A stretch of 64,000 nucleotides of DNA, taken from contig JBBRPY010000007.1 in assembly GCA_038227375.1 (NCBI GenBank), positions 6,681 to 70,680 on the forward strand, in the 5' to 3' direction. This document shows, piece after piece, positions 18,328 to 38,264 of the stretch (the first letter of the stretch is position 1; every line of letters starts with the position of its first letter). This DNA comes from Dehalococcoidia bacterium. GTDB lineage: Bacteria > Chloroflexota > Dehalococcoidia > DSTF01 > JACRBR01. A program made the position numbers and the translations under genes. A model generated the notes under the pieces. It was not told where the DNA came from, searched no databases, and was given only the letters and a program-made list of their open reading frames with translations.

Positions 18328-18330
18328 CCT

Positions 18331-19305: not shown

Positions 19306-19307
19306 GA

Positions 19308-20669: not shown

Positions 20670-20726
20670 GCTGCTGTCCTCCGGCTATGTGCTGGCGCCA
20701 CGCGCCCGTCTTCGCGGCTGGGTGTC

Positions 20727-21920: not shown

Positions 21921-21987
21921 CGGTTGCGTCTCCTACGGGTATCGCCCGTTGCGTTCGAAAAGACTCTTCGTTCCTTCGACTGCCCTG

Positions 21988-22839
21988 CTACCGGCGGAAG
22001 TTCGGCGGGCGCAACTCGTCGGGCAAGGCCTTCACGGTATCGATTGGCACGAGCTGGGCGACGTCCGCAACGCCGCTGTCGGCGACATCCTGATCGCCCT
22101 TGTTTCGGAGCGTCGCGCGAATCGTGCCATTCTGCTCGGCCAGGAACACCTTCTGCGCGTCCGGCTCCGAAAGCAGCAGCGTCAGCGTGACGGCGTCGGG
22201 CACCGGCTTGGCGGCGGCGTCAGCGGCCACGGGCGCGCCCGCCGTTGCGGTACCCGCTGCCGTCGGCGCCGGACCGGAGTTGACGATCGCCTGCGCCACT
22301 GCCGCGATCTGCACGTTGCGCAGGATCGTCTTGCTGGTCAGCGGCTCCGTCTTCGGCCACGACCAGACGAGGTCCACGAAGTCACCCGGAAGAATGAGCC
22401 CGCCCGCGCTGATGATCTGCGACGCCTGGATGGACACCGCGCGCTGGCCCACGGGCACGACGCCAGAGAGACCAGCGGTCGCGCCCGGAGTCGTGTCGAC
22501 GATCGCCTCCGCGGTGACCTGCTGGTTGGCCGAGATCGGGAAGCGGGTGACCTTGCCCACGACGCTCTTGATGTCCGGGAAGGAGCCCGTCGCGGAGGCG
22601 CTCAGCGGCACGCTCTTGAGTTCGAGCAGGTCTTGCGTGATCGTCGTGCGCTGGGGAATGATCCTCTTCGCCACGACTACCTGGACGTCGCCCGCCGACC
22701 CACTTGACGAGCTCGACGTGCCGCCCCGCGAAGTCAAGGCGTAGAACAGTACGGCGGTCAGCGCGCCGAACAAGACTGCCACAATGAGGAACTTACGATT
22801 CGTCCGGCCACGCGCTGATCCGGTCGCTGCTCGTGCCAT
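21988..22839 (-). CDS. cpaB: Flp pilus assembly protein CpaB/RcpC
   Basis: TM, SAF domain (VVVAKRII), GQRAVSI...GGLILPGDFVD, VTLTLL...LRN. Confidence 0.9.
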   Translation of the reverse strand: MARAATGSARGRTNRKFLIVAVLFGALTAVLFYALTSRGGTSSSSSGSAGDVQVVVAKRIIPQRTTITQDLLELKSVPLSASATGSFPDIKSVVGKVTRFPISANQQVTAEAIVDTTPGATAGLSGVVPVGQRAVSIQASQIISAGGLILPGDFVDLVWSWPKTEPLTSKTILRNVQIAAVAQAIVNSGPAPTAAGTATAGAPVAADAAAKPVPDAVTLTLLLSEPDAQKVFLAEQNGTIRATLRNKGDQDVADSGVADVAQLVPIDTVKALPDELRPPNFRR

Positions 22840-22893: not shown

Positions 22894-22920
22894 GTATCGG
22901 CCTCGCGCCGTGCCGCTTTA
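22894..22920 (-). promoter_or_regulatory. sigma28 (FliA/WhiG)-type promoter of the tad operon
   Basis: Minus strand TAAA-N15-GCCGATAC, 55 nt upstream of cpaB. Confidence 0.75.
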
Positions 22921-23004
22921 CGTCCCCTGAGGTCGAAGCTCCTGAATGCCGCTTCCCCAAAGCCATGCCGTCTCACTGGCTGACATAGCCATGTTCGACC
23001 CCGA

Positions 23005-23580
23005 TCAGGTCGCCGGGTCCACCTGCTTCATTGTTTTCCGGAGTGAATTGAGGGCGCGATGCTGGATCACCCGGATGGCGGCCACACTCTTCCCGATAAT
23101 CTCCGCTACTTCTCGGTAATCCAGATCTTCGATGAAACGGAGGATGATCACCTGGCGCTGCTCTTCCCGCAGCGTCAGAATCGCCTCCCGCACCAGTTCC
23201 TCCTCGGCGGTCCGCTCGTAGGCCGATTCTGGGTCGCGGTCGGACTTGTGCTCGACGATGCCGTCGTGGAGTTCCGATGACTCGCGCTTGGAGCGGAGGT
23301 AGCTCACGCCGAGATTGTGGGCGATGCGCAGCAGCCACGAGACGAAGGGCGCTCCCCGCACCTGATATCGCTCGATCGCCTCCCAGGCGCGCAGGAACGC
23401 CTGTGCTGTCAGATCCTCTGCCTCGGCGGCGTTGCCCACCATGTAATAGATGTGGCGGTAGACGCGGACCACGTGGCGGTCGTACAGCTCGCCGAACGCC
23501 TCCTGGTCCTTCTGGATGGCACGCAGGACGAGCGGAAGGTCGTCGTTCGCGCGCGGGACGGAGGAGTTGACGCTGACCAT
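23005..23580 (-). CDS. ECF sigma factor, BldN-like
   Basis: EAFGELYD...VYRHIYY...AEDLT...FLRA...SWLLRIAHN; region 4 KSVAAIRVIQHRAL. Start 23580 or 23625. Confidence 0.88.
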   Translation of the reverse strand: MVSVNSSVPRANDDLPLVLRAIQKDQEAFGELYDRHVVRVYRHIYYMVGNAAEAEDLTAQAFLRAWEAIERYQVRGAPFVSWLLRIAHNLGVSYLRSKRESSELHDGIVEHKSDRDPESAYERTAEEELVREAILTLREEQRQVIILRFIEDLDYREVAEIIGKSVAAIRVIQHRALNSLRKTMKQVDPAT

Positions 23581-23677
23581 ATGCCCTTGCACTCCCCGAA
23601 CTGACGCCGCGCACATTCGGGACAAATGAGCGCCGTCGATGGTGAAGTCACCTACGGGTGCGTTTGCGTCCCAATGA

Positions 23678-23705
23678 GAATCGGCAGAGTGCGGACGAAG
23701 CTTGA
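23678..23705 (-). promoter_or_regulatory. sigma28-type promoter of the ECF sigma gene
   Basis: Minus strand TCAAG-N15-GCCGATTC. Confidence 0.6.
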
Positions 23706-23759
23706 GGGCGGAGGGGGCGGGCGAATGGATTGTCGGCCGAGAGGCCGCCAGACGGCGTA

Positions 23760-25571
23760 TCAGTCGCTGCGCGGCATCAGCTCGGAAACGCTCGATGAGG
23801 GCATCTGGGTGCTCGGCCGCGCGGGCGGCTCCGGCGCGCGCCGGACGCTCGGCGGCACGGTCTCTTCGCCCGCCAGCGGCGGAGGCAGCAGCCGGAACTC
23901 GAATGTGTGCTGGCCGATCGCGAACGTGTCGCCGGATTCAAGGATCTGCCAGCCGCCGCTCGATCCGTCGGTCACCATCGCTGTCAGCCGCGTCATCTTG
24001 TGGACCATCAGCTGGCCCTTGCGGATCCAGATGCGCGCCTCCTCGGCCGTAAGCTCCGGGTCAGGAACGCGCACTGCACAGCGCGCGCCGGAACCGATGC
24101 TGACCGGGCTGGCGCCAACGCTGTACTCGCTCCCCAGGTCTGATCCGGCGCGCGAGATCAATATGCCAAGCGCCTCACCGACGGCTTCGTCCGGGGCCGA
24201 ATCATCGGGAGCGTCGGCGGGGCCGCCGCGGGTCAGGATTGGCTTGGCGAACGGCACGACGCGGCCGATGTCCGGAGCGTCTCCTCGCCGCGCGACGCGC
24301 ACCCGCGCCACGACGAACACGATAATCGCGATGATAGCCCCCACCGCGGCGCCGATGAAGACGAGCGGCGTGCTCGAGCCACCGCCGGCCGCCGGCACAA
24401 TCACCGGAACTACCGAGGAGAACTGCACGGATGCCTCAGAACTCCGGCCGCCCGTCTGGGCGCCCACGGAGAGCACGTGCGATCCGCCAGTGAATGATCG
24501 CGGATCGAACATCCAGGCGTACGGCGGGTCCACCGTCTCGAAGACCCTGACGCCATCCACGTGAAACGAGACGCGCGTACCGGCGCCGCTTGCGCCCGCA
24601 TCGACGGTGATCGTCCGCGCCGTCGTCAGCGATTCGCCGGCGGCCAGTCCCTTGATTGTGATCGGGACAGGGAAAAAGCCGGCGCCCGGGGTGTACGCCG
24701 CGGCCGCGATCACGGACGACCCCGAGTGCGCGACGCCGATCGACACCTGCGACCCTGTCGCGACCGCCGCCGAGGCGTCGAAGCTGACGATGTACTGCGA
24801 ATGAAGCAACTGCCCGACACCGGCGTAGAGCGCCGACAGGTCTTTCGGATCGGGCGCTTCGAGGTAGCGACCGTGCGTGACCTCGGCTAGCTGCTTCAGA
24901 TACGCCCGGTCAATGTCGCGGCCCTCACCAATGGTGAAGAAGGGCACGCCGATCCCACCAGCGGCGCCGATTGCTTGATCGCGTCCGATCGTCAGCGGCA
25001 CGCCGTCCTGCGCGCCATCGCTGAGGAAGATCACCGCGCGGCGGCTCGCGACCGATGTATTGACCTTGATCGCGGTGTTCGCCGTGGCTTGATAGAGCGC
25101 GGTGTTTCCGCGGGCAACCAGCCCATCAATCGCGTCGGTCATCGCTTTGCGGTCGGTCGTGTAGTCCTGCACGGACTGCACCTGGTCGGCGAAGCTGAAC
25201 AGCGCCACGCGGTCGCCGGGCACGAGCCCGGTGAGAAATCCCTTCGCCGCCTCCTTCGCCCGCGCGATCGGCTCGCCGCCCATGCTGCCGCTGGTGTCGA
25301 TGACGAACAGCACATCGAGTAGGATGTTCTGGCTCGATGCGAGGTCGGCGGAAACGACGGCGGCGGGCTTGCCGTCCACCGTGGCGGTGAAGTCCGCCGT
25401 CTTCAGGCCGGCGATCGCGGCGCCGGACCGGTCGTCGAGGTTGACCAGCGCGCGGGCGTTCGGGTAGTCGCCGTCCTTGATGCTTACGATGTCCGCGCGC
25501 AGCGTCGAGGGCTGCTGGGCGTGCGCCAGCGATAGCGTCAACACGCCCACGAGAGCGATGACGAGGACCAT
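23760..25571 (-). CDS. Single-pass protein: extracellular VWA plus Ig-like domain, TM, cytoplasmic FHA-like domain
   Basis: Signal peptide, MIDAS DTSGS, TALY, FLSDG; VSFHVDG...PPY Ig-like; TM; C-terminal LESGDTFAIG FHA-like end. Confidence 0.82.
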   Translation of the reverse strand: MVLVIALVGVLTLSLAHAQQPSTLRADIVSIKDGDYPNARALVNLDDRSGAAIAGLKTADFTATVDGKPAAVVSADLASSQNILLDVLFVIDTSGSMGGEPIARAKEAAKGFLTGLVPGDRVALFSFADQVQSVQDYTTDRKAMTDAIDGLVARGNTALYQATANTAIKVNTSVASRRAVIFLSDGAQDGVPLTIGRDQAIGAAGGIGVPFFTIGEGRDIDRAYLKQLAEVTHGRYLEAPDPKDLSALYAGVGQLLHSQYIVSFDASAAVATGSQVSIGVAHSGSSVIAAAAYTPGAGFFPVPITIKGLAAGESLTTARTITVDAGASGAGTRVSFHVDGVRVFETVDPPYAWMFDPRSFTGGSHVLSVGAQTGGRSSEASVQFSSVVPVIVPAAGGGSSTPLVFIGAAVGAIIAIIVFVVARVRVARRGDAPDIGRVVPFAKPILTRGGPADAPDDSAPDEAVGEALGILISRAGSDLGSEYSVGASPVSIGSGARCAVRVPDPELTAEEARIWIRKGQLMVHKMTRLTAMVTDGSSGGWQILESGDTFAIGQHTFEFRLLPPPLAGEETVPPSVRRAPEPPARPSTQMPSSSVSELMPRSD

Positions 25572-25694
25572 GATCCGTGCCAGTGTTATCGATGCGTTCG
25601 CCGTCGGATCCTCTCGATCTTGTGTGTCCGCTTACTCGCAGATGCGGCGAACAGCGGGCCTTCCATTTTTGTGTAAAGTTCGTCTCGTCGACTC

Positions 25695-25723
25695 TTGACA
25701 ACCGGTCCGCCGGATGCCAGAAT
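25695..25723 (+). promoter_or_regulatory. Housekeeping sigma70 promoter
   Basis: TTGACA-N17-CAGAAT with extended TGn. Confidence 0.75.
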
Positions 25724-25729
25724 CGACCC

Positions 25730-25967
25730 ACTTGAAGCGCGCGTTCGGCCAGTGGCACGCCGATCCCTCCGGGGCCGTCGCACTTCACAAGGCAGTATCG
25801 ACAGAATGTGGGCCGCGCTGAGCGGTACCGCGCGCCAAGCACGGATGCTAGGGCACGCAAGTCCGAAGCAGTTCCAGGGCGCGCTTTTTCGTCGCGCGCC
25901 AGATCGCGCCTTTGCTCTGCAAAGGCCCTCACATCGGGGCTACGGGTCCAGGGGACGCGCGTTCAGG
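25730..25967 (+). ncRNA. Candidate structured small RNA (~240 nt; 6S/Ms1-like hypothesis)
   Basis: Starts at the predicted TSS; 25731-25764 pairs with 25933-25967 in four stacked helices; several internal hairpins; no credible ORF. Confidence 0.6.
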
Positions 25968-26048
25968 AGGCGGGGCCTGGCTGGCGTCCTCTGGCCCCAA
26001 CCCATTTCCCGCCGAACCGCCCTCCCTCTCATCGCCGCCTCCCCTAAG

Positions 26049-26075
26049 TGCAGCTTTCTCGGCGCCAACCGATAT
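26049..26075 (+). promoter_or_regulatory. Possible sigma28-type promoter of the AAA ATPase
   Basis: TGCAG-N14-ACCGATAT; -35 is a weak match. Confidence 0.35.
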
Positions 26076-26196
26076 TCCTTTCGGAGGGCATCCGAAGGGC
26101 CGCGGCTCTTTCCGTCTCCATGCGACCGGGACGAACCCGCTCGGACACAGTAGTGGGAGCAGACGTGAGCAACGCGCGCGCTTCGGAGTGCACCTC

Positions 26197-27621
26197 ATGA
26201 CGACCGAGATCGCCGGCGGTCTGCGCACATCCCTGGCCGACACTCCCACCCTCCTCGACGCCGCCGCGACGGATGACACGGCAGCGCCGTTCGTGCCTCA
26301 ACCGCAGACCATCGAGGAAACCGGGCTCGACTTCTCGATGATGCTGGATCTCGTCGTGAAGTCCATCTACTTCGCCGGCCGACCGGCGGCGCGTCAGATC
26401 GCCGCCCAGCTCGCCCTCAGCTTTCCCGTGCTCGAGGAGGTGCTTGCCTTCATGAAGCGGGAGCAGCTCGCGGAAGTGGTCGGGAGCTCCGGGATGGGCG
26501 AGCAGCTCTATCAGTATTCGCTCTCCGGCAAAGGGCTGGAGAAGGCGGAGGAGGCGCTGAGCCGCAACCAGTACATCGGGCCGGCGCCCGTGCCCTTCGA
26601 GGTGTATCTCGAAGTGCTGAAGAAGCAATCCGTGCGTTCGGTACGCATCAGCTCGCAGTCGGTCGAGCAGGCAATCTCACATCTCGTGCTCGCCGAGCAG
26701 GTCGGCCTCGCCCTCGGACCGGCGGTCAATTCCGGGCGCTCGATGCTGCTGTACGGCGGGTCGGGCAACGGCAAGAGCACGATCACCAGCGCTATCGGCC
26801 GGATGCTGCCGGGCGAGGTGTTGATCCCGTACGCGATTGACCTCAACGGCATCATCGTCAAGGTCTTCGACCCGCGCGTCCACCACGAGATCCCGACAGA
26901 AAAGCAGATGGAGCGCCGCGCATCAGACGCGCCCGTCAACGGCGGCGCCGAGCGCAGACGCGACCGGCGCTGGGTCGTCGCGCGGCGGCCGATGATCACG
27001 GCCGGCGGCGAGTTGACGCTGAAGGACTTGGAGCTCCGCTACGCCGCGCAGTCGCAGTTCTACATCGCGCCGCTGCAGTGGAAGGCGAACAGTGGCATTC
27101 TCATCGTCGACGACTTCGGGCGCCAGATGATCCAGCCGAAGGAGCTGCTCAACCGCTGGATCGTGCCGATGGAGGAGCGCATCGACCACCTGTCCCTGCA
27201 CACGGGCGACATGGTGGAAGTGCCGTTCGACGTGCTGCTGATCTTTTCGACGAACCTCCGGCCCTCCCAGCTCGGCGATGAGGCGTTCTTTCGCCGCATC
27301 CGCCACAAGATCGAGATCCCCGACCCCACGCGCGAGCAGTTTCTCGAGATCCTCGCCCGCGTCTGCCAGCAACGCGAGATGCCGCTGGACACCGACGCCG
27401 CTCTCTACCTCATCGACGAGTACTACGACCGCACCGGGCGCGGCTTCAAGGGATGCCATCCGCGCGACATCATGGAGCTCGTCGTCGATATCTGCATGTA
27501 CCACGATGAGTCACCGGCGTTTACGCGCCGCCACCTCGACGCCGCCTGCCACTCGTACTTTGTCGACATGCAGGAAGATCCGGCGCCGGCGCGGACCAGC
27601 TTCGGCGGCCTCGCAGCGTAG
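26197..27621 (+). CDS. AAA+ ATPase of unknown function (N-terminal winged-helix-like region)
   Basis: Walker A GGSGNGKS, Walker B ILIVDDFGRQ, FSTNL, AFFRRIRHK; GGAG RBS before ATG 26197. Confidence 0.85.
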   Translation: MTTEIAGGLRTSLADTPTLLDAAATDDTAAPFVPQPQTIEETGLDFSMMLDLVVKSIYFAGRPAARQIAAQLALSFPVLEEVLAFMKREQLAEVVGSSGMGEQLYQYSLSGKGLEKAEEALSRNQYIGPAPVPFEVYLEVLKKQSVRSVRISSQSVEQAISHLVLAEQVGLALGPAVNSGRSMLLYGGSGNGKSTITSAIGRMLPGEVLIPYAIDLNGIIVKVFDPRVHHEIPTEKQMERRASDAPVNGGAERRRDRRWVVARRPMITAGGELTLKDLELRYAAQSQFYIAPLQWKANSGILIVDDFGRQMIQPKELLNRWIVPMEERIDHLSLHTGDMVEVPFDVLLIFSTNLRPSQLGDEAFFRRIRHKIEIPDPTREQFLEILARVCQQREMPLDTDAALYLIDEYYDRTGRGFKGCHPRDIMELVVDICMYHDESPAFTRRHLDAACHSYFVDMQEDPAPARTSFGGLAA

Positions 27622-27782
27622 CCGGTACGTCACATCTGCCCCGTCCGACAACGCGCGGCCCGCTTGGCGATCATTGGTGATCTTGCGGACGCGCCTGCAT
27701 GTGCTCTCCAACGCCGTGGGCCGAAGTCAGCGTGGTATAGTTGCGGCTCAACGCGCATGCATCGTAGACGCGGGAGGAGCCC

Positions 27783-28898
27783 ATGGGCGACACGCTGCCG
27801 AAGTTCACCGCAGCCGCCGTGCAGGCAGCGCCGCTGTTTCTCGACCGCGACGCGACCGTTGAGAAAGCCTGCGACCTGATCTCCGATGCGGCCAGCGCGG
27901 GCGCGGACCTTATCGTCTTTCCCGAGACGTGGGTGCCCGGATACCCCTTCTGGCATGCGTCGCCCGGCGTGTTTTCGGGCAACACCTTCGCCGAACTCTG
28001 GAAGAATTCAGTGGAAGTTGCCTCCGCCTCAACGAACAGGCTGGGAGAAGCCGCCCGCCAGGCAAACGCCTACGTCGTCATCGGCATCAACGAGCGATGC
28101 ACGGTCAGCCGCGGCACCCTCTACAACACGATGCTTTACTTCGCGCCGACTGGTGAGGTGGTCCACCGGCACCGCAAGCTCATGCCCACGTTCACGGAGC
28201 GAACGATCTGGGGGATGGGCGACGGGAGCGACCTGTCAGTGCTCGATACGCCGCTGGGCCGTCTCGGCGGCCTGATCTGCTGGGAGCACGAGATGACGCT
28301 CGCCAAGTACGCGCTCTACGCGCAGGGCGAGCAAGTGCACTGCGCGACGTGGCCCGCATTCTCGCACCAGAACAACCACATCGATTTTGGCATGCGACAG
28401 TACGCATTCGAGGGCGCCTGCTTCGTCGTGTCATCCTGCGGGCTTGTCACGCCCGGTTCGATGCCGGCCGCGCTCGAAGGCGATCATCTGCGCGCAAACG
28501 GTGGAAGCGGGATCATCGGCCCCGATGGGGAGTACCTCGCGGGCCCGATCTACGACAAGGAAGAGACCCTCTACGCCGAGATCGACCTTGAAGTGGCCCT
28601 CCGCGAGAAGCATTCGCGCGACATCGCCGGACACTATGCGCGGCCCGACGTCCTCCAGTTGGTGGTGCATGCGGAGCGCAAAGCGTCGATGACCGTAGGC
28701 TCGATCGCGGCGCGAGAAGAGCCCCTCGACGGCGCCACCGCGGAGGAAGTGGTGGACCGCCTGGAAGCCGTCCGGGAATACCTCGGCAGCCTCATCGGGC
28801 GGATCGAGACGGACGGCGATTCCGAGGTGAACGCCGCGCTCGCCGAAGCGCTGGCGTCCATCGACCTGGCCGCCGCCGGCATGTGGAGCAGCAAGTAG
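27783..28898 (+). CDS. Nitrilase (carbon-nitrogen hydrolase branch 1) with C-terminal extension
   Basis: Triad FPE, HRKLMPT, ICWEH; GHYARPD. Confidence 0.92.
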   Translation: MGDTLPKFTAAAVQAAPLFLDRDATVEKACDLISDAASAGADLIVFPETWVPGYPFWHASPGVFSGNTFAELWKNSVEVASASTNRLGEAARQANAYVVIGINERCTVSRGTLYNTMLYFAPTGEVVHRHRKLMPTFTERTIWGMGDGSDLSVLDTPLGRLGGLICWEHEMTLAKYALYAQGEQVHCATWPAFSHQNNHIDFGMRQYAFEGACFVVSSCGLVTPGSMPAALEGDHLRANGGSGIIGPDGEYLAGPIYDKEETLYAEIDLEVALREKHSRDIAGHYARPDVLQLVVHAERKASMTVGSIAAREEPLDGATAEEVVDRLEAVREYLGSLIGRIETDGDSEVNAALAEALASIDLAAAGMWSSK

Positions 28899-28902
28899 CG
28901 CC

Positions 28903-29592
28903 TTGCCGACGAACGCGGGGCCCGAACCAACTCCCTCGCCTGCCAAGGCCAACCTGCGCTCGCAGATGCGCAAACGCCGCCTCCCCTACGACGCGGAAGC
29001 GGCGCAGCAACATCTCGCGGCCGTCGATCCCGTGATGAAAGAGGTTATCGATGGCGTGGGCGAGTACGCCATCGAGGTCCGCGGCGAGCCGTACCAACAA
29101 CTGCTTCGCTCGATCCTGTACCAGCAACTCGCTGGCGCAGCCGCAGCTGCGATCGAGCGCCGCTTTCTGGCGATCTTTGGCGGCATTCCGTCGCCCGACG
29201 AACTGGCGCTGGTTTCCGATGAAGCGGTGCGAGCCGCAGGCGTCTCGCGCCAGAAGGCCGGCTACATGCGCAGCCTGGCGGAACGATTCGCCTCCGGAGC
29301 GCTCGACGACAAGACGCTCCGGCGCGCCTCCGATGCCGACGTGATCGAGATGGTCACCGAGGTCAAGGGGATCGGGCGCTGGACGGCCGACATGTTGCTG
29401 CTCTTCTGCCTCGGCCGGCCTGACGTGCTGCCCGTAGGCGACCTCGGCGTGCAGAACGCGATGCGTTCCGCCTACGGCCTTGCGGCGCCGCCAAAACCGG
29501 CGGCGATGGAGGCGATAGCGGAGCGATGGCGCCCGTACCGCAGCGCGGGTACCTGGTACCTCTGGCGGCGCACCGACATCGTGACGCTGTAG
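28903..29592 (+). CDS. DNA-3-methyladenine glycosylase II (AlkA-like HhH-GPD)
   Basis: SILYQQL, KGIGRWTADM, DVLPVGDLG, WRPYRS. Confidence 0.92.
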   Translation: MPTNAGPEPTPSPAKANLRSQMRKRRLPYDAEAAQQHLAAVDPVMKEVIDGVGEYAIEVRGEPYQQLLRSILYQQLAGAAAAAIERRFLAIFGGIPSPDELALVSDEAVRAAGVSRQKAGYMRSLAERFASGALDDKTLRRASDADVIEMVTEVKGIGRWTADMLLLFCLGRPDVLPVGDLGVQNAMRSAYGLAAPPKPAAMEAIAERWRPYRSAGTWYLWRRTDIVTL

Positions 29593-29603
29593 CGGCTCAT
29601 ACG

Positions 29604-29981
29604 ATGCACGAGATCGACCGCGCGGAGTACGAGTCGGTGGTGATGCGCGCCGTGCAGGGACTGCCTGAGGCGTTCCGCGAGCGCATCTCGAACCTCGAGT
29701 TCGCAGTGGAGGATTGGGCGCAGCCGGACGACTACGCCCGCGGTGGCACGCCGCCCGGCAGCACGATCCTTGGCATCTATCGCGGCGTGCCTCTTCCAAA
29801 GCGCCACGCCGGGTACAACATGATGCTGCCGGACCGCATCGTCATCTTCCGGGAACCGCTCCAGCGGATCGCCCGGGACGAAGCGGATCTGACCGCTCGC
29901 ATCGAGCACGTCGTGCGGCACGAGATCGCGCACTATTTCGGCATCAGCGATGAACGCCTGCGCGAGATCGACGCCTACTGA
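29604..29981 (+). CDS. Zinicin-like metallopeptidase
   Basis: LGIYRGVP, PDRIVIFR, VRHEIAHYFG (HExxH). Confidence 0.88.
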   Translation: MHEIDRAEYESVVMRAVQGLPEAFRERISNLEFAVEDWAQPDDYARGGTPPGSTILGIYRGVPLPKRHAGYNMMLPDRIVIFREPLQRIARDEADLTARIEHVVRHEIAHYFGISDERLREIDAY

Positions 29982-29999
29982 TCGCGAGCGGCCTCCTGC

Positions 30000-31481
30000 T
30001 CAACCGCACGCGGCGTTGTCTGCGGTCAATCGCGGACAGACGACGTAGAACGCGATGCCCCCGCGATCCCAACCCGGACGATCCCGGACCGACAGCGCCT
30101 CCTGACTATCGCGGCGCCAGCGGTACACCGGCTGGGTGTGGATGGCGCCGCCGTCGGCCGACGCATAGACGTAGAACGCAGGTGCTCCCGGTACCGTGGG
30201 CGGCCGGATGGTGTACGTGCCGTCGCCTGAGACGGAGACTGGCGCGAGGCCGTCGACCTGGCGGCCCGACGCGTAGAACGAGACACCCTGGTCGGTGAAG
30301 CCGGCGCCGGGCGATGCGGCGGCGAAGCGCAGCGCACCACCAGCATCCTTCCACTCGTGAATCGCCACGCCGAGGTGCAGTTCCACTAGCGTGACATCGT
30401 ATGGCTTCTGGCTCGAGAACGTCACGTACAGCGTCGACGGGTCGTGCGACGACAGCTCCTTGTGTACTTCCGCGCTGTAGCAGTACGGATAGACATCCTC
30501 GACCAGCGGGCGGCAGTCGAGCCAAGTCACCGGCTCCGACCACGGCCCCCAGGGGTGTTCCGCCGTACGGACGGCGACCGTCGCTAGTTGTCCGTTGTAC
30601 ATCGCCAGCCACTTGCCGCTGGCGTCGTCGAACGTGACCGAGACTCCGTTGTCCGCGGGCAGGCCCTCTGCGCCTTCGGGCGCGGCCCATATCGGCTGCG
30701 CCGCTTGCGGTCGCGGTTGCCATCGCGTTCCATCCCAGTAGGTGTACGCGCCGACGTCCGCCAGGCGGTCGATCGGCGCGCGCGCCACGTAGTTCGCGCC
30801 GCGCTCGGTGCGCAGGTAGACGATGACATCCGCCCCATCGCGTACGGGCGATCGCGCGCCGGCGAGCCGGTCGCCGAAGCCGCTGTTCGCGTCCCAGATG
30901 GTCTCCGCCGTCCGGGCGCCGTCGGTGGATCCGGCGGCCACGCGTCCAAGCCCGACAGAGGAGACGTGCCAGGCGAACGGAGAATCGCGACGCACCTTCA
31001 CCATGTAGAACACGATGCTGCCGTCGTCGAGGACGAGGGTGCCGTCAGGCCAGGCGGTCGTCTCCTCCGCCGGAGGGAAGAGCGGCTGCGCGACGCCCGC
31101 GCTCTTCTTGAAGTCGAGGCGCACGCAGTCCTTGCCCTCGACATCCGTGCTCGTCGCGACCGCCGCCGGGACCACGTCCTGCCGGCCGCCGGGGCCGTTG
31201 CGGATCGTGTCTCCGAACAGCCAGTAGCTCCTGCCGCCGGCGACGACGCTGGCGGCGCCGTCGGCGCCCCGCACCTGCGCGACGGCGGAGTCGGGGTTGT
31301 CGGCGATGAGACGGCAGACCATGCGCGCGGCGACGACAACAGGGGCAGCCGCCTGCGAGGGTGACGCTGTGACGATGTCGCTGCCTGCGGCGTGACCACC
31401 GGGCGATTGGGAGCACGCCGACAGGCCTACAGCGACACAACACAGCGCGAACGCTGTCAAGAATTGGGGTCGAAGGATCAT
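30000..31481 (-). CDS. Putative lipoprotein, DUF4185-like beta-propeller
   Basis: Lipobox GLSAC, YWLFGDT, YTYWDG, PWGPWS. Confidence 0.7.
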   Translation of the reverse strand: MILRPQFLTAFALCCVAVGLSACSQSPGGHAAGSDIVTASPSQAAAPVVVAARMVCRLIADNPDSAVAQVRGADGAASVVAGGRSYWLFGDTIRNGPGGRQDVVPAAVATSTDVEGKDCVRLDFKKSAGVAQPLFPPAEETTAWPDGTLVLDDGSIVFYMVKVRRDSPFAWHVSSVGLGRVAAGSTDGARTAETIWDANSGFGDRLAGARSPVRDGADVIVYLRTERGANYVARAPIDRLADVGAYTYWDGTRWQPRPQAAQPIWAAPEGAEGLPADNGVSVTFDDASGKWLAMYNGQLATVAVRTAEHPWGPWSEPVTWLDCRPLVEDVYPYCYSAEVHKELSSHDPSTLYVTFSSQKPYDVTLVELHLGVAIHEWKDAGGALRFAAASPGAGFTDQGVSFYASGRQVDGLAPVSVSGDGTYTIRPPTVPGAPAFYVYASADGGAIHTQPVYRWRRDSQEALSVRDRPGWDRGGIAFYVVCPRLTADNAACG

Positions 31482-31584
31482 CCGGCTCCTGAAACGGCGA
31501 GGGGTGTCATGATAGGAGAACGCCCGCGGCGGTAAAAGGTCAACGCATGCCCGCACGGTCGCGGTGACGCATACAGCCAGCGCA

Positions 31585-31818
31585 TCAACGGCGGCGGTAC
31601 CAGCGCTGGGCCGCGACACCAGACCAGACGATCTCGACCACGCCGAAAGGCCAGGCGCCCTGCAGGAACCCATACAGCGACGACGCCAGGCACGCGGCCG
31701 CGAACGCCAGCAGAACGATCGCCGCGCGCTCCTCCAGTGCGTAGAAGAGCAGCATCGACCCGACCGCGATGACGCCGAAGACCGTGAGCGTCAAGAGGTC
31801 AGCCTCAACCTCTGGCAA
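31585..31818 (-). CDS. Small membrane protein (three TMs)
   Basis: Hydrophobic, YGFLQGAWPFGVVEIVW motif; start uncertain. Confidence 0.7.
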   Translation of the reverse strand: MPEVEADLLTLTVFGVIAVGSMLLFYALEERAAIVLLAFAAACLASSLYGFLQGAWPFGVVEIVWSGVAAQRWYRRR

Positions 31819-31926
31819 GCGCCTCGAAGCTGTTTACGAGCGTGTCGGGTTGCGATGTGCACTGCCTTCGTCTCCTCCAGCAACCGCATCGTTGAAACAC
31901 GGCCAGTTCGCTTGGACAGCACCGCC

Positions 31927-33303
31927 TCAGTACCGCGCGGCGACGCCGTGCGTACGTGCGCCTTCGTCCGACTCCTCGTTCCGGCCACGGAATACGAGCT
32001 TGATCGCTGTGCCGTCGAACCCGAAGGTCCGGCGGATGACGTTCTCCATGTACCGTCGGTAGCCGAAGTGCACATTCGACGCCACGTTCAGGAAGAAGAC
32101 GAAGGTCGGCGGGTCGACCTCCGCCTGCGTGACGTAGAGCAGCTTGATGCGATTGCCCTTCGGCGGCGCCGGCGGCGGCTTCTCGGCGACGGCCCGGCGC
32201 ACTGCCTGGTTGAGCGCGCCCGTATCGACGTGCCGCTGTCTCTCCTCGCCGACGCGCACGCATTCGGCGAGAAGCTCCGGAATGCCGGTGCCCTCCTTCG
32301 CCGAGATGAAGCGGATCGACACCCACGAGGCGAATTTTAGTTTCCAGCGAAGGCGCTTCTCCCAGGCTTCCTGATCCCACTCCTCGTCGCGCACGAGGTC
32401 CCACTTCTTGGCGGCGACGATGACGCCACGTGCCGCATCGAGGGCGAAGCCGATCACGTGCGCATCCTGCGCCGTGAAGCTCTCGGAGAGATCGAAGAGG
32501 CAAAGGGCGACCTGCGCCCGTTCGAGGGCGCGGCGCGCACGCAGGGTCGAATGCTTCTCGACGCCCGGCTCGATCGAGCCTCGCCGTCGCAGACCGGCCG
32601 TATCGATCAGCACGAGGGGATGTCCCTCAAAGTCGAACGTCGTGTCGATCGCATCCCTCGTTGTGCCAGGCACCTCGCTGACGATGACGCGATCCTCGCC
32701 GAGAATGGCATTGAGCAGCGACGACTTCCCCACATTGGGCCGCCCGACGATCGCCAGCCGCAGGCCCTCGTCGGCCTCCTCGGCTTCGGACGGCGGCAGT
32801 GTATCGACGATCATGTCGAGCACATCAGCGACGCCGTGGCCGTGGTGCGCGCTGATCGGGATCGGCTCGCCAACGCCCAGCTCGTAGAACGAGATGGCGG
32901 CCTCCTCACGCTCGCGGTTCTCGGCCTTGTTCACGATCAGCAGCACCGGCTTGTTCGAGCGGCGAAGCATCTCGGCGACTTCCTGATCGGCGGCGGTCGA
33001 CCCGCTAATCGAATCGACCACGAAGAGGACAAGCTGCGCTTCGGCGAGCGCGTATTCCACCTGCGAGCGAATGAGCGGCGTGTAGGTGCCGGGCACGTCG
33101 GGCTCGAGGCCGCCGGTGTCGACCACCTGGAACTCGCGGTCGCGCCATTCGACTTCGCCGTAGATGCGGTCGCGGGTCGTCCCCGCAAGGTCTTCCACCA
33201 GAGCGGGGCGCCCTCCGACCATCCGGTTGAACAGCGCCGACTTCCCCACGTTCGGCCGGCCGACGATGGCGACGATCGCTTGTTTGGAAGGCGTGGTCAC
33301 CAT
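31927..33303 (-). CDS. der: Ribosome biogenesis GTPase Der (EngA)
   Basis: Two [13 protein letters not shown] GTPase domains and KH-like C-terminus (PPTFVFF, YRRYMEN). Confidence 0.96.
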
Positions 33304-33346
33304 GCCCTACCTTCCGCCAACGAACTTTGGCAGCAGAACCGCGCGC

Positions 33347-33381
33347 CATCCAACATCCAACATCCAACTTCCAACATCTAG
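33347..33381. repeat. Heptamer tandem repeat (CATCCAA)x5, degenerate
   Basis: catccaa catccaa catccaa cttccaa catctag right after the cdaR stop. Confidence 0.85.
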
Positions 33382-33382
33382 A

Positions 33383-34645
33383 TCACCTGCGCTCCGAGAG
33401 GGCGATGCCGATCTGCCCCGGGTCGGTGCGCGTCACCGACGTGCCCGCGGGCGGCGTCACCTGCAGCGGCAGCGCGTGCAGTCCGGCGGCAAGCCCCTGC
33501 GCATCCGCCGTGACGATGATCGACGCCGGCGCAACGGCCTGGAGGACCGGCAGATCGCCCGATATCGTCACCGAGACGGCTTGCGGCGGCGTCAGCGCCA
33601 GGCCCGAAGCGACGTTCCGGATCTGCGGCGCGACGCTGTAGGTCGCCTCACCGCGCGCTGGCCTGATCGATATCGTTACCTTGACCGAGGCAGAGCCCCG
33701 CACGGCTGTCCCCGCCGGCAACACCACCTGCACCGCCCGCACGACATCCGCCCGCGCGTCCGCAATCGAGATCTCCTCCGTGGAGATGCCCTTCACGGCG
33801 TCGATCGACTGGAGCACGTCGAGCGGGCCGGTGACCAAGATCAGCGCCGGTTCCACGCCGACGCCGCCGATGTTATAACCCGTGGCCGGCGCGCCCGTAA
33901 CCAACGGGTTGACGCGAAATTCAATGCTGAACTCCTTTTGTTCCAGGTCGACGTTGACGCTCGCCCGGGGAGGATTGAGCTTGACGCGGCTAACATCGCC
34001 GCCCCGCACGTCGCGCGGCTTGAGGTCGATGCTGTCGGTGACGTCGGCGCGGAGGCCCGTAAGGTTCACCTCCGCGACCGCCGAATCCACGAGCGCCACG
34101 AGGCTCTCCGGGCCTGTGACGGTGACGCTCTCCGGCTGCGACGTCTGCCCCACCGCGCCGAACCCCTGCTGCGGCGAGCCAAGCAGCGCTACATTGACCC
34201 GCACCTGGTTGCTGCGCAGGTTTTCGAGGGTGATATCGACGTGGTCGGGAGTTGTCGTCGCCACGCTGACGTTGGCGCTCGCGGGCGCGACATCGACGGC
34301 GACGCTCGCCTGGCCCTTCGCCACCCCACCTAGGTCCACGGTCGCCTGAAAGTCGTCGGCGCGCAGACTCTTCAGCTGATTTGCCGTCGCTTCGACGCGA
34401 ATGCGCACGCTCGTCTCCGATGCGTTCGCAACCGCGAGGTCGTTCGGCACGTTGACGAACTTCACCGGGATCGCGCTGCTGAAGCTCTGCACCTGCTTGG
34501 GGTTCTCGCGGTCGATGACGAAGAGCCAGAGGCTCAGCCCCAGCGCCACCGAAAGCAGCGCAAGGCTCATGTTGCCGAACGTGGCCGTGATCACGCCGCG
34601 GCCGAGGAAGAGCATCGCGCCCGGCAGGCGGCGGAACGTCCCCAT
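33383..34645 (-). CDS. cdaR: CdaR/YbbR-domain regulator of diadenylate cyclase
   Basis: N-terminal TM (LSVALGLSLWLFV), repeated P..V.VTGP YbbR units, directly downstream of cdaA. Confidence 0.88.
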   Translation of the reverse strand: MGTFRRLPGAMLFLGRGVITATFGNMSLALLSVALGLSLWLFVIDRENPKQVQSFSSAIPVKFVNVPNDLAVANASETSVRIRVEATANQLKSLRADDFQATVDLGGVAKGQASVAVDVAPASANVSVATTTPDHVDITLENLRSNQVRVNVALLGSPQQGFGAVGQTSQPESVTVTGPESLVALVDSAVAEVNLTGLRADVTDSIDLKPRDVRGGDVSRVKLNPPRASVNVDLEQKEFSIEFRVNPLVTGAPATGYNIGGVGVEPALILVTGPLDVLQSIDAVKGISTEEISIADARADVVRAVQVVLPAGTAVRGSASVKVTISIRPARGEATYSVAPQIRNVASGLALTPPQAVSVTISGDLPVLQAVAPASIIVTADAQGLAAGLHALPLQVTPPAGTSVTRTDPGQIGIALSERR

Positions 34646-35439
34646 CAGTGCCGCCCGTTCCGGTGATTCCCCGCCAGCCGGTCGAGCAGCGCGCGTAGCC
34701 GCGGTTCATCGAGGCGCGTGTACATCCGCCCTTCTGCCGCCACGGAAATGGCGCCCGTCTCTTCGGACACAACGACCGAGATCGCATCCGTCCCTTCGGT
34801 GATGCCGAGGCCCGCCCGGTGCCGCGTGCCCAGCTCTCCTGGCAGGCTATTCTGCGACAGCGGCAGCGTCACGGCAGCCGCCACGACGCGGTTGCTGCGG
34901 ACGATCACCGCGCCATCGTGCAGCGGTGAGTTCGGAAAGAAGATGCCGTGCAGCAGCTCCGGCGACGGCAGCGCGTCCACCGGGACGCCGCTTTCGATGT
35001 AGTCCTGGAGCCCGGTCTCGCGCTCGAGGACGATCAGCGCGCCCACCTTGCGCTTTGCCATGTCCGACGCCGCCTCACTCACTGCCTCGATCGTGCCGGG
35101 GTTGCTGCTGATGCTCGCGCCGAACGCCCGCGAGCCCGTGCGACCGACGCGTTCGAGCGCGCGCCGCAGCTCCGGCTGGAAGATGATCGGCAGCGCGATC
35201 AGCAAGCCGGTGAACGAGTTGCGCAAGAGGAAGTTCAGCACGCGCAGATCGAAGATGCGGGCGAGCAGAAAGGCGCCGATGAGGAGAATGAAGGCGCCGC
35301 GCATGACGGCCATCGCCGTCGTGCCGCGAAGGAGCATCAGCACGCCAAAAAAGATCAGCGAGATCAGGGCGACATCGAGCGCCGAAGTCGCATCGAACTG
35401 CTGGAAGTCGTCGCGGAGCAGCTGGAGGAGGTCGCTCAT
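34645..35439 (-). CDS. cdaA: Diadenylate cyclase CdaA
   Basis: Three TMs, IFQPELRRALE, PLHDGA, GTRHRA, VSEETG. Confidence 0.96.
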   Translation of the reverse strand: MSDLLQLLRDDFQQFDATSALDVALISLIFFGVLMLLRGTTAMAVMRGAFILLIGAFLLARIFDLRVLNFLLRNSFTGLLIALPIIFQPELRRALERVGRTGSRAFGASISSNPGTIEAVSEAASDMAKRKVGALIVLERETGLQDYIESGVPVDALPSPELLHGIFFPNSPLHDGAVIVRSNRVVAAAVTLPLSQNSLPGELGTRHRAGLGITEGTDAISVVVSEETGAISVAAEGRMYTRLDEPRLRALLDRLAGNHRNGRH

Positions 35440-35451
35440 GGGCGTCGCGAC

Positions 35452-36378
35452 CTATACGTCGTGGTCGCTCGTGGTGAGCGCCAGGATCGCTTTCTGCGCG
35501 TGCAGCCGGTTCTCGGCCTGATCGAAGACGACGGACTGCGGGCCTTCGATCACCTCCTCCATCACTTCTTCGCCGCGATGGGCCGGCAGGTCGTGCATGA
35601 AGATGGCCGTGGGCTTGGCAAGCGCCATCAGGTCGGCTGTGATGGCGAAGCCGGTGAACGCCTCGCGGCGCTCCGCGATCGAATCCTCCTGCCCCATGCT
35701 CGCCCAGACGTCGGTGTAGACGACGTCGGCGTCCCGGATGGCGGCGGCCGGTGCGTCGTACAGATCGACGGCGCCGCCGCTTCGGGCAGCCAGATCGCGG
35801 ATGAGGCGCTGCGCCGGTTCCGGGAGCTCGTAGCCCGCCGGTGCGGCCATCGCGAACGACATGCCGACCAGCGCGGCGCCCTCGGCCAGCGAGACGGCGA
35901 CGTTGAAGCCATCTCCGACAAACGCCAGCCGGATGCCTCGTAGCCTCCCAAACCGCTCGAGCACCGTCAGCAGGTCGGCCATCGCCTGGCACGGGTGCTC
36001 CTCGTCGGACAGCGCGTTGATCACCGGCACATCCGCGTGGCGCGCCAGGTCCAGCAGCGTCTGGTGCTGGTATGTACGGGCGGCGATCACGTCGACGTAC
36101 CGGGCGAGCACGCGCGAGACGTCGGCCACGGACTCGCGCTGGCCGAGGCCGACCTCCGCCTGGCTGAGATAGATCGCGTGCCCGCCCAGCTCCTGCATCG
36201 CCACGTCGAAGCTGACGCGGGTGCGAAGCGACGGCTTCTCGAAGAGCAACGCCAGCGTCTTGCCGCGCAGGAGGTCGTGGCCGCCGCCATCCCGCTTCAG
36301 GCTCAGGGCCGTCTGCAGGGTGCGCTCGATCTCGTCCGGCGAGAGATCGGCGATAGAGAGGACGTCGCGCCCGCGCAT
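35452..36378 (-). CDS. argF: Ornithine carbamoyltransferase
   Basis: FEKPSLRTR, HPCQ, YTDVWASMGQE, HDLPAHRG; GGAGG RBS before ATG 36378. Confidence 0.93.
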   Translation of the reverse strand: MRGRDVLSIADLSPDEIERTLQTALSLKRDGGGHDLLRGKTLALLFEKPSLRTRVSFDVAMQELGGHAIYLSQAEVGLGQRESVADVSRVLARYVDVIAARTYQHQTLLDLARHADVPVINALSDEEHPCQAMADLLTVLERFGRLRGIRLAFVGDGFNVAVSLAEGAALVGMSFAMAAPAGYELPEPAQRLIRDLAARSGGAVDLYDAPAAAIRDADVVYTDVWASMGQEDSIAERREAFTGFAITADLMALAKPTAIFMHDLPAHRGEEVMEEVIEGPQSVVFDQAENRLHAQKAILALTTSDHDV

Positions 36379-36452
36379 GGTGCCTCCGCAGCTTCGATGT
36401 GAGCGCAGTATAACGCCGTTCCGAGTCTGGAGACGGCGCTTCAGGGGTCGAT

Positions 36453-36480
36453 TCAAGATGGCAGCGCCCCAAGCCGATAC
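36453..36480 (+). promoter_or_regulatory. sigma28-type promoter of the tadE-tadG-tadE locus
   Basis: TCAAG-N15-GCCGATAC, ~80 nt upstream of tadE. Confidence 0.68.
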
Positions 36481-36561: not shown

Positions 36562-36999
36562 ATGCCCAGCACGCCCGGCTTCAATCCCCAGCAGTCCGTC
36601 GCCGGCCGGCGCCGTACTTCGGGCCAGCGCGGCCAGGGCACGGCGGAGCTGGCGCTGATGTTGCCGCTGTTGCTGATCTTGATCGTCGGCATCATCGAAT
36701 CGACCGCTGCCTTCAACGCATACACGACCGTCGTCAGCGGCTCTCGCGACGGCGCTCGTCTCGGGTCGAAGGGCGCGGCGACCACCGCGCAGATCCAGAC
36801 GCTTGTCGTGAAGGACCTCGGGCGCCTGAAGAACACCACCCCCGCTTCGAACATCACTGTGTCGTTTCCTGTCGTCTCAGGAGTGAACTCCATCAAGGTG
36901 CGAGCCTGCTACAACCACACCACGTTTCTGAAGGTGCCGTTGATCATGCCGAACTCCATCCAGATGTGCTCCGAGACGACGATGCCGAAACTCAGTTGA
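36562..36999 (+). CDS. tadE: TadE-like pseudopilin
   Basis: RGQGTAELALMLPLL prepilin motif, SRDGAR. Confidence 0.88.
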   Translation: MPSTPGFNPQQSVAGRRRTSGQRGQGTAELALMLPLLLILIVGIIESTAAFNAYTTVVSGSRDGARLGSKGAATTAQIQTLVVKDLGRLKNTTPASNITVSFPVVSGVNSIKVRACYNHTTFLKVPLIMPNSIQMCSETTMPKLS

Positions 37000-37007
37000 G
37001 GTGCATC

Positions 37008-38264
37008 ATGCTTAGCGTTCGTCGCCGCATCGTCGGAGAGTCGGGACAGGTCCTGCCCTTCATGGCCCTCCTGTTGTTCATCATCATCGGGCTGCTTGGC
37101 CTGGCGGTGGACGTCGGGCACATCTATGCCGCCCGCGCCCAGCTTGGGCGCTCGGTCGACGCCGCGGCGCTCGCCGGCGCGCAGCAGTTGCCCAACGTCA
37201 CCGCCGCCGACGCGAAGGCGCGCGCCTTCATCGCCGCGAACGACCCCGACGCCACGATCAACGTGCAGGTGTATCCGAACGTGCCCTCGCAGCAGGTCGG
37301 AGTGAAGGCGACGAAGACGGTGAAGACGTTCTTTATGCGCGTCTTCGGCATCTCGACGGTGCAGGTCACCAACGACGCGCTCGCCGGGTTCGGCGTGATT
37401 CCGGTGGACGCCGTCCTCGGCATCGACTCCACCGGCAGTATGCGCAACGCCCCGTGCACGAGCGCCTTCGACGCAACGACACCCGGCTGCCCGATTAAGG
37501 AGGCGAAGGACGCCGCCAAAGCGTTCGTCAACACGCTGCTCCCCAGCAGCTCCACGCAGGTCGGGATGTACCCGTATCGCGGCTGCTACAACCCGCCGGA
37601 CCCGAGCGGCACCTGCATCCCGACGAGCGCGATCCAGAACCTCACCTCGAACGCGGCGACGATCAACGCCAAGATCACCGCGATCGACTCGACGGGTGGC
37701 TCCGGAACGAACACCTGTCTCGCGCTGCTCCAGGGGGATCAGACCGTCTTCGGCCCGGGGTATTCGACGGCATCAAATACACGCCGTTATGTCGTTCTGC
37801 TCACCGACGGCGACAACGTGTACAACAGCGTCTCGTACGTCGCGGGCCTGGCGCCGCCGACGGCCTGCCGCCCGTCCAACAGCCAGACTTCTGACACCTA
37901 CGTCGGCACACAGTGTTCGGGCATTGGTGACCCAAGTGCGGGCGCCAACTCGAACCCGAAGGAGCGCGAGCTCGACACCAAGGGCAAGACGGAGTCAGAC
38001 ACGCTGAAGACCAAAGGCGTGGAGGTCTACATCGTCGCCCTCAGCGTCTGCGGCTCGGAGGACAACCAGTTTCCCGGCACGAGCTACTGCTCGAATATCG
38101 GGAACAGCGACCCTGACACGATCTCCGACCAGCGTACGCTGAAGTGTGTCGCCTCGTCGTCGCCCGGCACGAACGACCACTACTTCCGCACAGACAACGC
38201 CGCGGACCTGCCAGCGATCTTCTCGAAGATCGCGCAGATCATCGCATTCAGGTTGATCAAATGA
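37008..38264 (+). CDS. tadG: TadG-like pseudopilin with Cys-rich VWA domain
   Basis: ESGQV, LAVDVG, DAAALAGA, MIDAS DSTGS, LLTDG. Confidence 0.85.
   Translation: MLSVRRRIVGESGQVLPFMALLLFIIIGLLGLAVDVGHIYAARAQLGRSVDAAALAGAQQLPNVTAADAKARAFIAANDPDATINVQVYPNVPSQQVGVKATKTVKTFFMRVFGISTVQVTNDALAGFGVIPVDAVLGIDSTGSMRNAPCTSAFDATTPGCPIKEAKDAAKAFVNTLLPSSSTQVGMYPYRGCYNPPDPSGTCIPTSAIQNLTSNAATINAKITAIDSTGGSGTNTCLALLQGDQTVFGPGYSTASNTRRYVVLLTDGDNVYNSVSYVAGLAPPTACRPSNSQTSDTYVGTQCSGIGDPSAGANSNPKERELDTKGKTESDTLKTKGVEVYIVALSVCGSEDNQFPGTSYCSNIGNSDPDTISDQRTLKCVASSSPGTNDHYFRTDNAADLPAIFSKIAQIIAFRLIK

Follow-up and report, generated by a model that had tools for sequence, protein, structure and literature searches.

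Sigma-28-type promoter motifs before Tad pilus, ECF sigma and c-di-GMP genes suggest a surface-filament regulon in a flagellum-less order of Chloroflexota

Sigma-28 factors are the textbook regulators of flagella. A different use has been described in Rubrobacter radiotolerans (Actinomycetota), where the predicted WhiG regulon comprises 12 promoters supported by mapped transcription start sites, three of them in a pilus cluster and five before genes for diguanylate cyclases or phosphodiesterases, and where WhiG forms the complex (RsiG)2-(c-di-GMP)2-WhiG with cyclic di-guanosine monophosphate (c-di-GMP); the discussion of the same paper adds the zoospores of Actinoplanes as another case of sigma-28-family control of type IV pili (PMC8325347). 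A survey of WhiG1 and WhiG2 (bioRxiv 10.64898/2026.01.14.699351 = PMC13595943) reports diguanylate cyclase and phosphodiesterase genes as the most widespread predicted targets, adds genes for type IV pili and for some sigma factors, and gives T(A/C)AA-N16-GCCGATAA as the WhiG2 consensus. That survey is limited to the Actinomycetota, the Chloroflexota serving as the outgroup of its tree, and a search of its main text for Tad, ECF, BldN, Flp and archaell* gave no match (PMC13595943). Here we analyse a 64,000-nucleotide stretch of the genome of an uncultured Dehalococcoidia bacterium (the window; G000:C7:6681-70680), in which promoter-like sites of sigma-28 type stand before a Tad (type IVc) pilus assembly operon, a pseudopilin operon, a gene for an extracytoplasmic function (ECF) sigma factor and a gene for an AAA-type ATPase. 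The genome has 3,096,883 bases (~3.10 Mb; 66% GC) in 91 contigs, denoted C1, C2 and so on, and is 97.6% complete.

Like the WhiG regulon of the non-flagellated, non-sporulating R. radiotolerans, the set of sites described here is small and shows a sigma-28-type consensus before pilus and c-di-GMP genes. It differs in its lineage (Chloroflexota, not Actinomycetota), in its filaments (Tad and an archaellin-family gene, not a pil cluster), and in the presence of two sigma-28 paralogues, an ECF target, no RsiG motif and a replaced Gly61; moreover, the Rubrobacter regulon is supported by transcription start sites, whereas this one is known from sequence comparison (PMC8325347). The WhiG2 consensus covers both -35 variants seen here (PMC13595943), and the site before cpaB, TAAAG-N14-GCCGATAC, shares the layout of the Pseudomonas aeruginosa fliC promoter, which has TCTAAAG at -35, GCCGATAA at -10 and 14 nt from TAAAG to GCCGATAA (PMC12784957). 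Unlike canonical FliA/SigD promoters, the sites have a -10 ending in AC, TC or AT instead of AA and a -35 that tolerates TnnAG; unlike canonical FliA/SigD systems, they occur in an order where FlhA is missing from all 93 genomes searched. For the Chloroflexota it has been reported that Tad pili occur in about one third of genomes, that archaellum clusters occur in 243 of 3,780, and that flagella were lost repeatedly (PMC12488501). The genome studied here fits that survey in carrying an archaellin-family gene (PF01917) and a pair of KaiC-like and T2SSE ATPase genes, and departs from its archaellum clusters in that no complete archaellum is evident; the main text of that paper does not use the word promoter, and its sole mention of sigma is a chemical supplier (PMC12488501). 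Our full-text search of the literature found nothing on sigma-28 control of Chloroflexota Tad pili or on a cascade from sigma-28 to an ECF sigma factor.

The four sites, proposed in an earlier note on this DNA, are present in the window, and each points to the gene named for it (P_cpaB, P_ECF, P_tadE and P_AAA; Table 1). The pattern T[AC]AAG-N14-15-GCCGAT[AT]C matches exactly three times in the whole genome, at P_cpaB, P_ECF and P_tadE, and none of 100 shuffles of the window that kept dinucleotide composition matched either half-pattern (the TAAAG-N14 or the TCAAG-N15 form). Taken alone the -10 word GCCGATA is unremarkable: the window contains 11 copies where 7.1 are expected, and at least 11 turn up in 10 of 100 shuffles. 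Compared with the sigma-28 consensus, P_cpaB agrees at four of four -35 positions and seven of eight -10 positions with a spacer of 14 nt, while P_ECF and P_tadE share TCAAG and a spacer of 15 nt. A looser pattern, TMAAG-N14-15-GCCGATNC, occurs 170 times in 41 related genomes, against 50 times when the pattern is read backwards. This count and those given below for the ECF orthologue and the sigma-28 paralogues include one unpublished genome (G001), and no conclusion hinges on it.

Conservation of the sites in relatives had been set beforehand as a test of the proposal, and across relatives both boxes are kept while the spacers have diverged. The comparison used 41 related loci around the ECF orthologue, drawn from public metagenome-assembled genomes; all public relatives carrying the gene are of this kind, labelled Dehalococcoidia, Chloroflexota or Chloroflexia bacterium. 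P_ECF, in the form T..AG-N15-[GA]CCGA[TCA], is found across the order in 36 of the 41, with a variable -35 (CTCAAG, CTAAAG, CTCTAG, CTTTAG or CTACAG), a nearly invariant TGCCGAT and a 15-nt spacer whose sequence is unconstrained. P_cpaB is kept within the family as CGTAAAGC-N12/13-GCCGATACCTATACAGC at 34 of the 41, and four of the seven loci without it end short of cpaB. The footprints of both sites recur in a further genome set. Gene order is retained as well (P569 / VWA / ECF / cpaB / cpaE / cpaF): the VWA membrane protein encoded upstream of the ECF gene is matched in 40 of the 41 loci and its N-terminal VWA part in 39, the exceptions being L088, which matches residues 468-559 only, and L090, which begins within the ECF gene.

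The site before the AAA ATPase gene, which the earlier note had called weak and included with a "possibly", now stands on firmer ground because it is conserved across the family: T(C/G/T)CAGCTTT-N10/11-(G/A/T)CCGAT(A/T) is present in 25 of 31 aligned rows, the six rows without it being the most distant loci, and a strict regular expression matched 15 of the 31. The FliA consensus of Escherichia coli is TAAAGTTT-N11-GCCGATAA, which the P_AAA form resembles. The open reading frame of the ATPase begins at TTG 25912; we ruled this codon out as the start of the gene, since coding-type bias in third-position GC content is lacking before about 26200 and both this bias and the cross-species alignment begin near ATG 26197. 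The protein gives weak AAA profile matches only, and in relatives it is about 80% identical and keeps its synteny. As a separate observation, several of the promoters discussed here carry recurrent heptamers of CCCTAAG or CCTTAGG type in their spacers and 5' leaders (L084, L086, L165-L185, L195-L208).

If such sites are read by a sigma-28 factor, a homologue of FliA or WhiG is expected in the genome, and the earlier note had asked for one. Among 13 Sigma70_r2 matches, two are group-3 proteins (sigma2-3-4) closest to FliA/WhiG. Their top NCBIfam models are FliA_WhiG and WhiG (186.1 bits for paralogue A, 177.8 for paralogue B), followed by SigB/F/G at 117 and 108. The closest solved relative is full-length Streptomyces venezuelae WhiG (6PFV; E 5.6e-41 and 5.8e-36), and next come FliA structures (6PMI, 9WSM and 1RP3), the FliA relatives being those of E. 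coli, P. aeruginosa and Aquifex. Both paralogues retain RIRG...PRS (regions 2.4-3.0) and the ESRxxQ of region 4.2, which by motif mapping reads ESRASQ in paralogue A and ESRVCQ in paralogue B, and each was found in 41 of 41 relatives. Their C-termini are EDAA and EEAA, tails that could be ClpXP-type degrons, as could the ...AA end of the small acidic protein described below. In P. aeruginosa sigma-28, S224 and Q228 of an ESRVSQ-type helix read the -35 TCTAAAG (PMC12784957).

Neither FlhA nor flagellin was found in this genome, and FlhA was found in none of 93 genomes of the order; in a sample of 401 genomes from the class, 44 have flagellin. The sigma-28 genes of five flagellated genomes are only 33-38% identical to paralogue B, and for this reason orthology to A or B is not assignable. 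A six-frame scan for the RsiG motif E-x3-S-x2-R-x3-Q-x3-D returned one match, in an 841-residue frame without RsiG character, and one small candidate tested against the FlgM family gave no match. Paralogues A and B have N and S, respectively, at the position aligned to WhiG Gly61, a c-di-GMP contact; K57, G61 and R62 are residues of RsiG-controlled WhiG2 (PMC13595943). With no RsiG motif and the WhiG glycine replaced, control of these factors would therefore differ from the known RsiG switch.

The ECF protein consists of regions 2 and 4 only. The description "BldN-like" in the earlier note holds in part: BldN (TIGR02952) is the nearest curated model and the two-domain sigma2 and sigma4 architecture is shared, but the score of 142.8 bits lies well below the cut-off of 206.45. 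Unlike the BldN family, this gene has no anti-sigma gene beside it, neighbours a Tad operon and has a promoter of sigma-28 type upstream. TIGR02937, the model for the ECF superfamily in general, is matched at 106.3 against a cut-off of 42.9. Orthologues with 60-90% identity occur in 41 of 41 relatives, and the five flagellated class members tested gave ECF matches of only 37-40%, so the protein seems particular to the lineage carrying these promoters. Since P_ECF is kept across the whole order, a cascade from sigma-28 to the ECF factor is the natural reading, with the ECF sigma as a putative second tier under a sigma-28-type promoter.

Outside the window we searched with a position weight matrix built from the P_ECF, P_cpaB and P_AAA instances, which score high because the matrix was built from them; no other member was used in building it. 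In the genome ranking the sites before cpaB (25.5) and the ECF gene (25.2) come first, and third is a site before a gene for a GGDEF diguanylate cyclase (22.6); 19 of 22 orthologue loci from the same family retain this site, as does one of eight loci from other families. An archaellin-family filament gene, whose product scores above the cut-off of a domain model for the archaellin/type IV pilin N-terminus, has the promoter-like site CCTAAAGC-N12-CGCCGACAAT in 12 of 14 close orthologue loci. A gene for a small acidic protein has CCTAAGGG-N13-TGCCGATACT in 18 of 21 loci; the proteins, 98-140 residues long and in relatives mostly starting MAFGKKK, combine a long N-terminal half rich in Ala, Glu and Pro with a conserved C-terminal block (LLxMFxTxxxExxDxSxLLxLAGxVxxDDLLEELxTVAAALG) and end in ...AA. 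Directly behind paralogue B, in 11 of 12 relatives whose loci were selected through the sigma match, independently of the motif, lies an HD-GYP (HD_5/MASE9) gene, and the spacer between the two carries a (G/T)(G/C)CCGATA box in 11 of the 12 loci and GTCGATAC in the twelfth. Finally, a gene for a hydrophobic 28-residue peptide has its own Shine-Dalgarno sequence and a terminator-like hairpin, followed by a gene for a DUF5317 membrane protein that in relatives has its own GCCGATACT-like box. The site before the peptide gene is present in seven of seven loci, a circular count because the six relatives were picked via the pattern search; that the same small open reading frame and DUF5317 follow in all seven is independent of it.

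Table 1. Features discussed in the text; positions without a contig name are those of the window
Feature	Position	Strand	Basis or remark
P_cpaB, TAAAG-N14-GCCGATAC	22894..22920	-	55 nt before cpaB ATG 22839; between ECF gene and cpaB
P_ECF, TCAAG-N15-GCCGATTC	23678..23705	-	~53 nt before ECF start 23625/23616
P_tadE, TCAAG-N15-GCCGATAC	36453..36480	+	82 nt before tadE ATG 36562
P_AAA, TGCAG-N14-ACCGATAT	26049..26075	+	before likely true start of AAA ATPase, ATG 26197
ECF sigma (regions 2 and 4 only)	23005..23625	-	start TTG 23625 or ATG 23616; Pfam Sigma70_r2, r4
Tad assembly operon	17410..22839	-	Pfam RcpC/CpaB, Response_reg and ParA, T2SSE, T2SSF
cpaB	21988-22839	-	CpaB equivalog TIGR03177, 137.6 against cut-off 71
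cpaE-like (receiver and ParA/MinD ATPase)	20727-21920	-	Pfam
cpaF/tadA	19308-20669	-	Pfam T2SSE
tadB	18331-19305	-	Pfam T2SSF
tadC	17410-18330	-	Pfam T2SSF
Membrane protein with VWA, Ig, transmembrane and FHA-like cytoplasmic domains	23760..25571	-	Pfam and translation; upstream of ECF gene
AAA-type ATPase	26197..27621	+	Walker A GGSGNGKST, Walker B ILIVDD; divergent from VWA gene
Pseudopilin operon	36562..38743	+	Pfam TadE, Tad, VWA; ~13 kb from ECF/Tad locus
tadE	36562-36999	+	Pfam
tadG-like with VWA	36966-38264	+	Pfam
tadE-like	38144-38743	+	Pfam
Sigma-28 paralogue A	C17:13903-14724		NCBIfam and structure-relative alignment
Sigma-28 paralogue B	C12, ~29622-30350		NCBIfam and structure-relative alignment
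GGDEF diguanylate cyclase	C6:7881-8702		promoter-like site 125 nt upstream, matrix score 22.6
Archaellin-family filament gene	C1:139761-140336		Pfam Arch_flagellin (PF01917), E 9e-25
Small acidic protein	C3:16420-16716	-	loci L245-L265; no Pfam or NCBIfam match
28-residue membrane peptide, MARFIPTALVALSILATTAVMVAPWTWR	C16:48863-48949 (= L161:864-950)	+	TCAAG-N14-GCCGATAG at C16:48797

We consider it likely that one or both of the FliA/WhiG-family factors drive a pilus and c-di-GMP regulon that includes the ECF sigma gene. Specifically, they would guide RNA polymerase to a small conserved set of sites of the form T-n-n-A-G, 14-15 nt, GCCGAT(A/T)(C/T), and would thereby drive four units in the window (the Tad assembly operon, the tadE-tadG-tadE pseudopilin operon, the AAA ATPase gene and the ECF sigma gene) and, outside it, the genes for the GGDEF cyclase, the HD-GYP phosphodiesterase, the archaellin-family protein, the membrane peptide with DUF5317, and the small acidic protein. 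With such targets the unit, of about nine promoters, would be a regulon of sigma-28 type that serves surface filaments and the turnover of c-di-GMP; the evidence speaks to pili, surface proteins and c-di-GMP turnover only. The conserved -10, which spans 7-8 nt, supports the assignment, a -10 of this length fitting sigma-28 better than an ECF sigma factor. The regulon proposed in the earlier note, with sigma-28 controlling Tad piliation and feeding an ECF tier, is thus supported comparatively, and we infer from the boxes and the gene content which kind of sigma factor reads the promoters.

Several results weigh against this assignment. Both paralogues score narrowly under the TIGR02479 cut-off of 189.6, and the -35 is only loosely defined (TnnAG). 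Of all the sites P_tadE shows the weakest conservation: a matrix score of at least 12 within 260 nt upstream was found in six of 19 loci with a tadE match, this locus included, where the genome-wide rate predicts about 0.16, and the location of the pseudopilin operon differs between genomes. The specificity of the matrix is modest, with seven hits of at least 20 against three in the reversed genome and three of at least 22 against one, and several top scorers are intragenic. A second Tad locus (on C22) has no sigma-28-type site. The HD-GYP site scores at least 13 in just five of 13 loci. No recurring GCCGAT-type site was found upstream of the paralogue A gene in the 12 loci, of 30, that were inspected, and in flagellated members of the class only two of 12 flagellin upstream regions (300 nt) reach a score of at least 8. 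Moreover, co-occurrence does not separate the candidate factors, since the ECF protein and both paralogues are all present in 41 of 41 relatives.

The strongest alternative, which we regard as unlikely, is that the ECF sigma factor itself reads the motif, autoregulating from P_ECF and activating the Tad operon and the other genes, while the sigma-28-like proteins serve other targets. The arrangement of the locus speaks for it, and hence against sigma-28: the ECF gene has the motif before its own start and lies directly upstream of cpaB and the Tad operon, the classic layout of an autoregulated ECF gene. The small size of the regulon would also suit an ECF factor, as would the facts that the protein equals the promoters in conservation and in presence throughout the order and that it is matched only distantly in the five flagellated class members. 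Against these points, the boxes form a near-perfect sigma-28 element, whereas ECF promoters are of the AAC / CGT type, and the -10 is conserved over 7-8 nt. Among the literature matches listed, there is no ECF sigma with a GCCGATA motif. Were the ECF factor the reader, the two sigma-28 paralogues would need promoters of their own, and no second GCCGAT-like motif class remains for them; the HD-GYP gene is fixed beside paralogue B and not beside the ECF gene, and the ECF gene has no anti-sigma partner. It is the near-textbook boxes, the long -10, the want of a leftover motif class and the position of the HD-GYP gene that lead us to rank this alternative well below control by sigma-28.

We give still less weight to a promoter of the housekeeping sigma factor, its -10 being of GATAC(T/C) type, or to sites of a shared transcription factor, an explanation that is improbable. 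It would account for the occurrence of GCCGATACT at other intergenic sites, once behind TTGACA (at C5:83677), for the mild enrichment of GCCGATAC outside genes (52 of 168 occurrences, against a non-coding fraction of 24.6%) and for the conservation of the bases immediately 3' of the -10. None of the promoters discussed here, however, has a TTGACA-like -35 at housekeeping distance, the boxes are non-palindromic, and two boxes at a fixed gap of 14-15 nt around a free spacer are the signature of sigma recognition. Chance resemblance in GC-rich spacers would fit the unremarkable count of the -10 heptamer alone in the window, but it is virtually discounted by a composite pattern that no shuffle reproduced and whose only three genomic matches all lie at this locus, and it is already contradicted by boxes kept across dozens of genomes while their spacers vary.

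Starting from the regulon under sigma-28, a wider scenario can be sketched, which we offer as a tentative one that is more doubtful than the regulon itself. The flagellar sigma lineage may have outlasted the flagellum in this order, rewired to serve as master switch for a programme of surface filaments and c-di-GMP. Its targets would be the Tad pilus and a horizontally acquired archaellin-family filament protein, the cyclase and the HD-GYP phosphodiesterase could form a c-di-GMP feedback loop, and the lineage-specific ECF sigma might act as the second tier. In this scenario a novel partner would take the place of FlgM or RsiG in restraining the factor. A possible candidate is the small acidic protein, with its disordered N-terminal half, the conserved helix in its C-terminal part and its terminal ...AA.

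Turning to the other filament genes, the Tad core is complete (CpaB, CpaE/TadZ, CpaF/TadA, TadB, TadC and TadE/G-type pseudopilins, by Pfam and NCBIfam), with Peptidase_A24 genes elsewhere, on C2 and C20. The locus on C22 (C22:6443-13395, plus strand) is a second complete Tad-like operon with cpaB, cpaE-like, cpaF, tadB and tadC, and two tandem Flp-family pilin (Flp_Fap) genes lie at C1:98436-99118 (plus strand; starts at C1:98436 and C1:98990), preceded only by a poor motif-like stretch. There is also a type IVa locus with pilB, pilC and a pilT-like gene (C43:5287-8241 and 13295-14644, plus strand), where the one site, TCAAT-N14-GCCGATAC, is weak and lies some 470 nt ahead of pilB. A second archaellin-like gene (C2:128290-128560, plus strand), broken in that its frame is interrupted and then truncated, is preceded by the element TCAAGTCGGGTGC-N5-ACCGTGCGAG, which has an internal GGTG...CACC symmetry; its -35-like part resembles that of the regulon and its -10 region differs. 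In the form (T)CAAGTCGGGTGC-N5-ACC(A/G)TGCGAG, the same element heads tandem arrays of up to five archaellin-like genes in relatives (L210-L215). It occurs once in the genome, and as a candidate ECF target it could not be tied to the ECF factor. Genes for a KaiC-like ATPase (263 residues) and a T2SSE ATPase (594 residues) are adjacent in ArlH-ArlI order (C17:1993-4575, minus strand), about 10 kb from sigma-28 paralogue A and adjoined by a GAF-GGDEF gene. Apart from the TadB/C and PilC genes, no platform of ArlJ type was found in the genome. Since the KaiC-like/T2SSE pair is isolated as well, a complete archaellum was ruled out.

Two further features of the window were observed. Between its two Tad loci lie cdaA (DAC domain) and YbbR-repeat genes (33383-35439, minus strand), so a module for the synthesis of cyclic di-adenosine monophosphate is also present. 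Inside the 625-nt spacer between the VWA and AAA ATPase genes is an element of about 73 nt (25936-26008, plus strand as written) that is 79-96% identical (mostly 89-96%) across 30 related loci, its flanks being far less conserved, and that folds as a hairpin of 20 pairs, with compensatory changes at two pairs and most pairs invariant. It is preceded by a variable GC hairpin, and a TTGACA-N17-CAGAAT box lies at 25695-25723. A search of 22700-26400 against Rfam, with E up to 1, gave a single spurious miRNA match and none for this element or for the 5' leaders; the element may be a candidate for a novel small RNA or leader.

Until now the reuse of sigma-28 for type IV pili and c-di-GMP enzymes had been described in the Actinomycetota only (Rubrobacter, Actinoplanes and the 2026 survey), and the same logic is now seen in a Chloroflexota order that is uncultured and lacks flagella. 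Three aspects would be new here: that sigma-28-type promoters serve a Tad (type IVc) machine, that a filament gene of the archaellin family is under a promoter of the bacterial flagellar type, and that the conserved targets include an ECF sigma gene, which would make a two-tier sigma cascade. A concrete regulon of about nine promoters makes a lineage without genetics accessible to experiment, and it would explain the FliA-like genes that non-motile Chloroflexota have retained.

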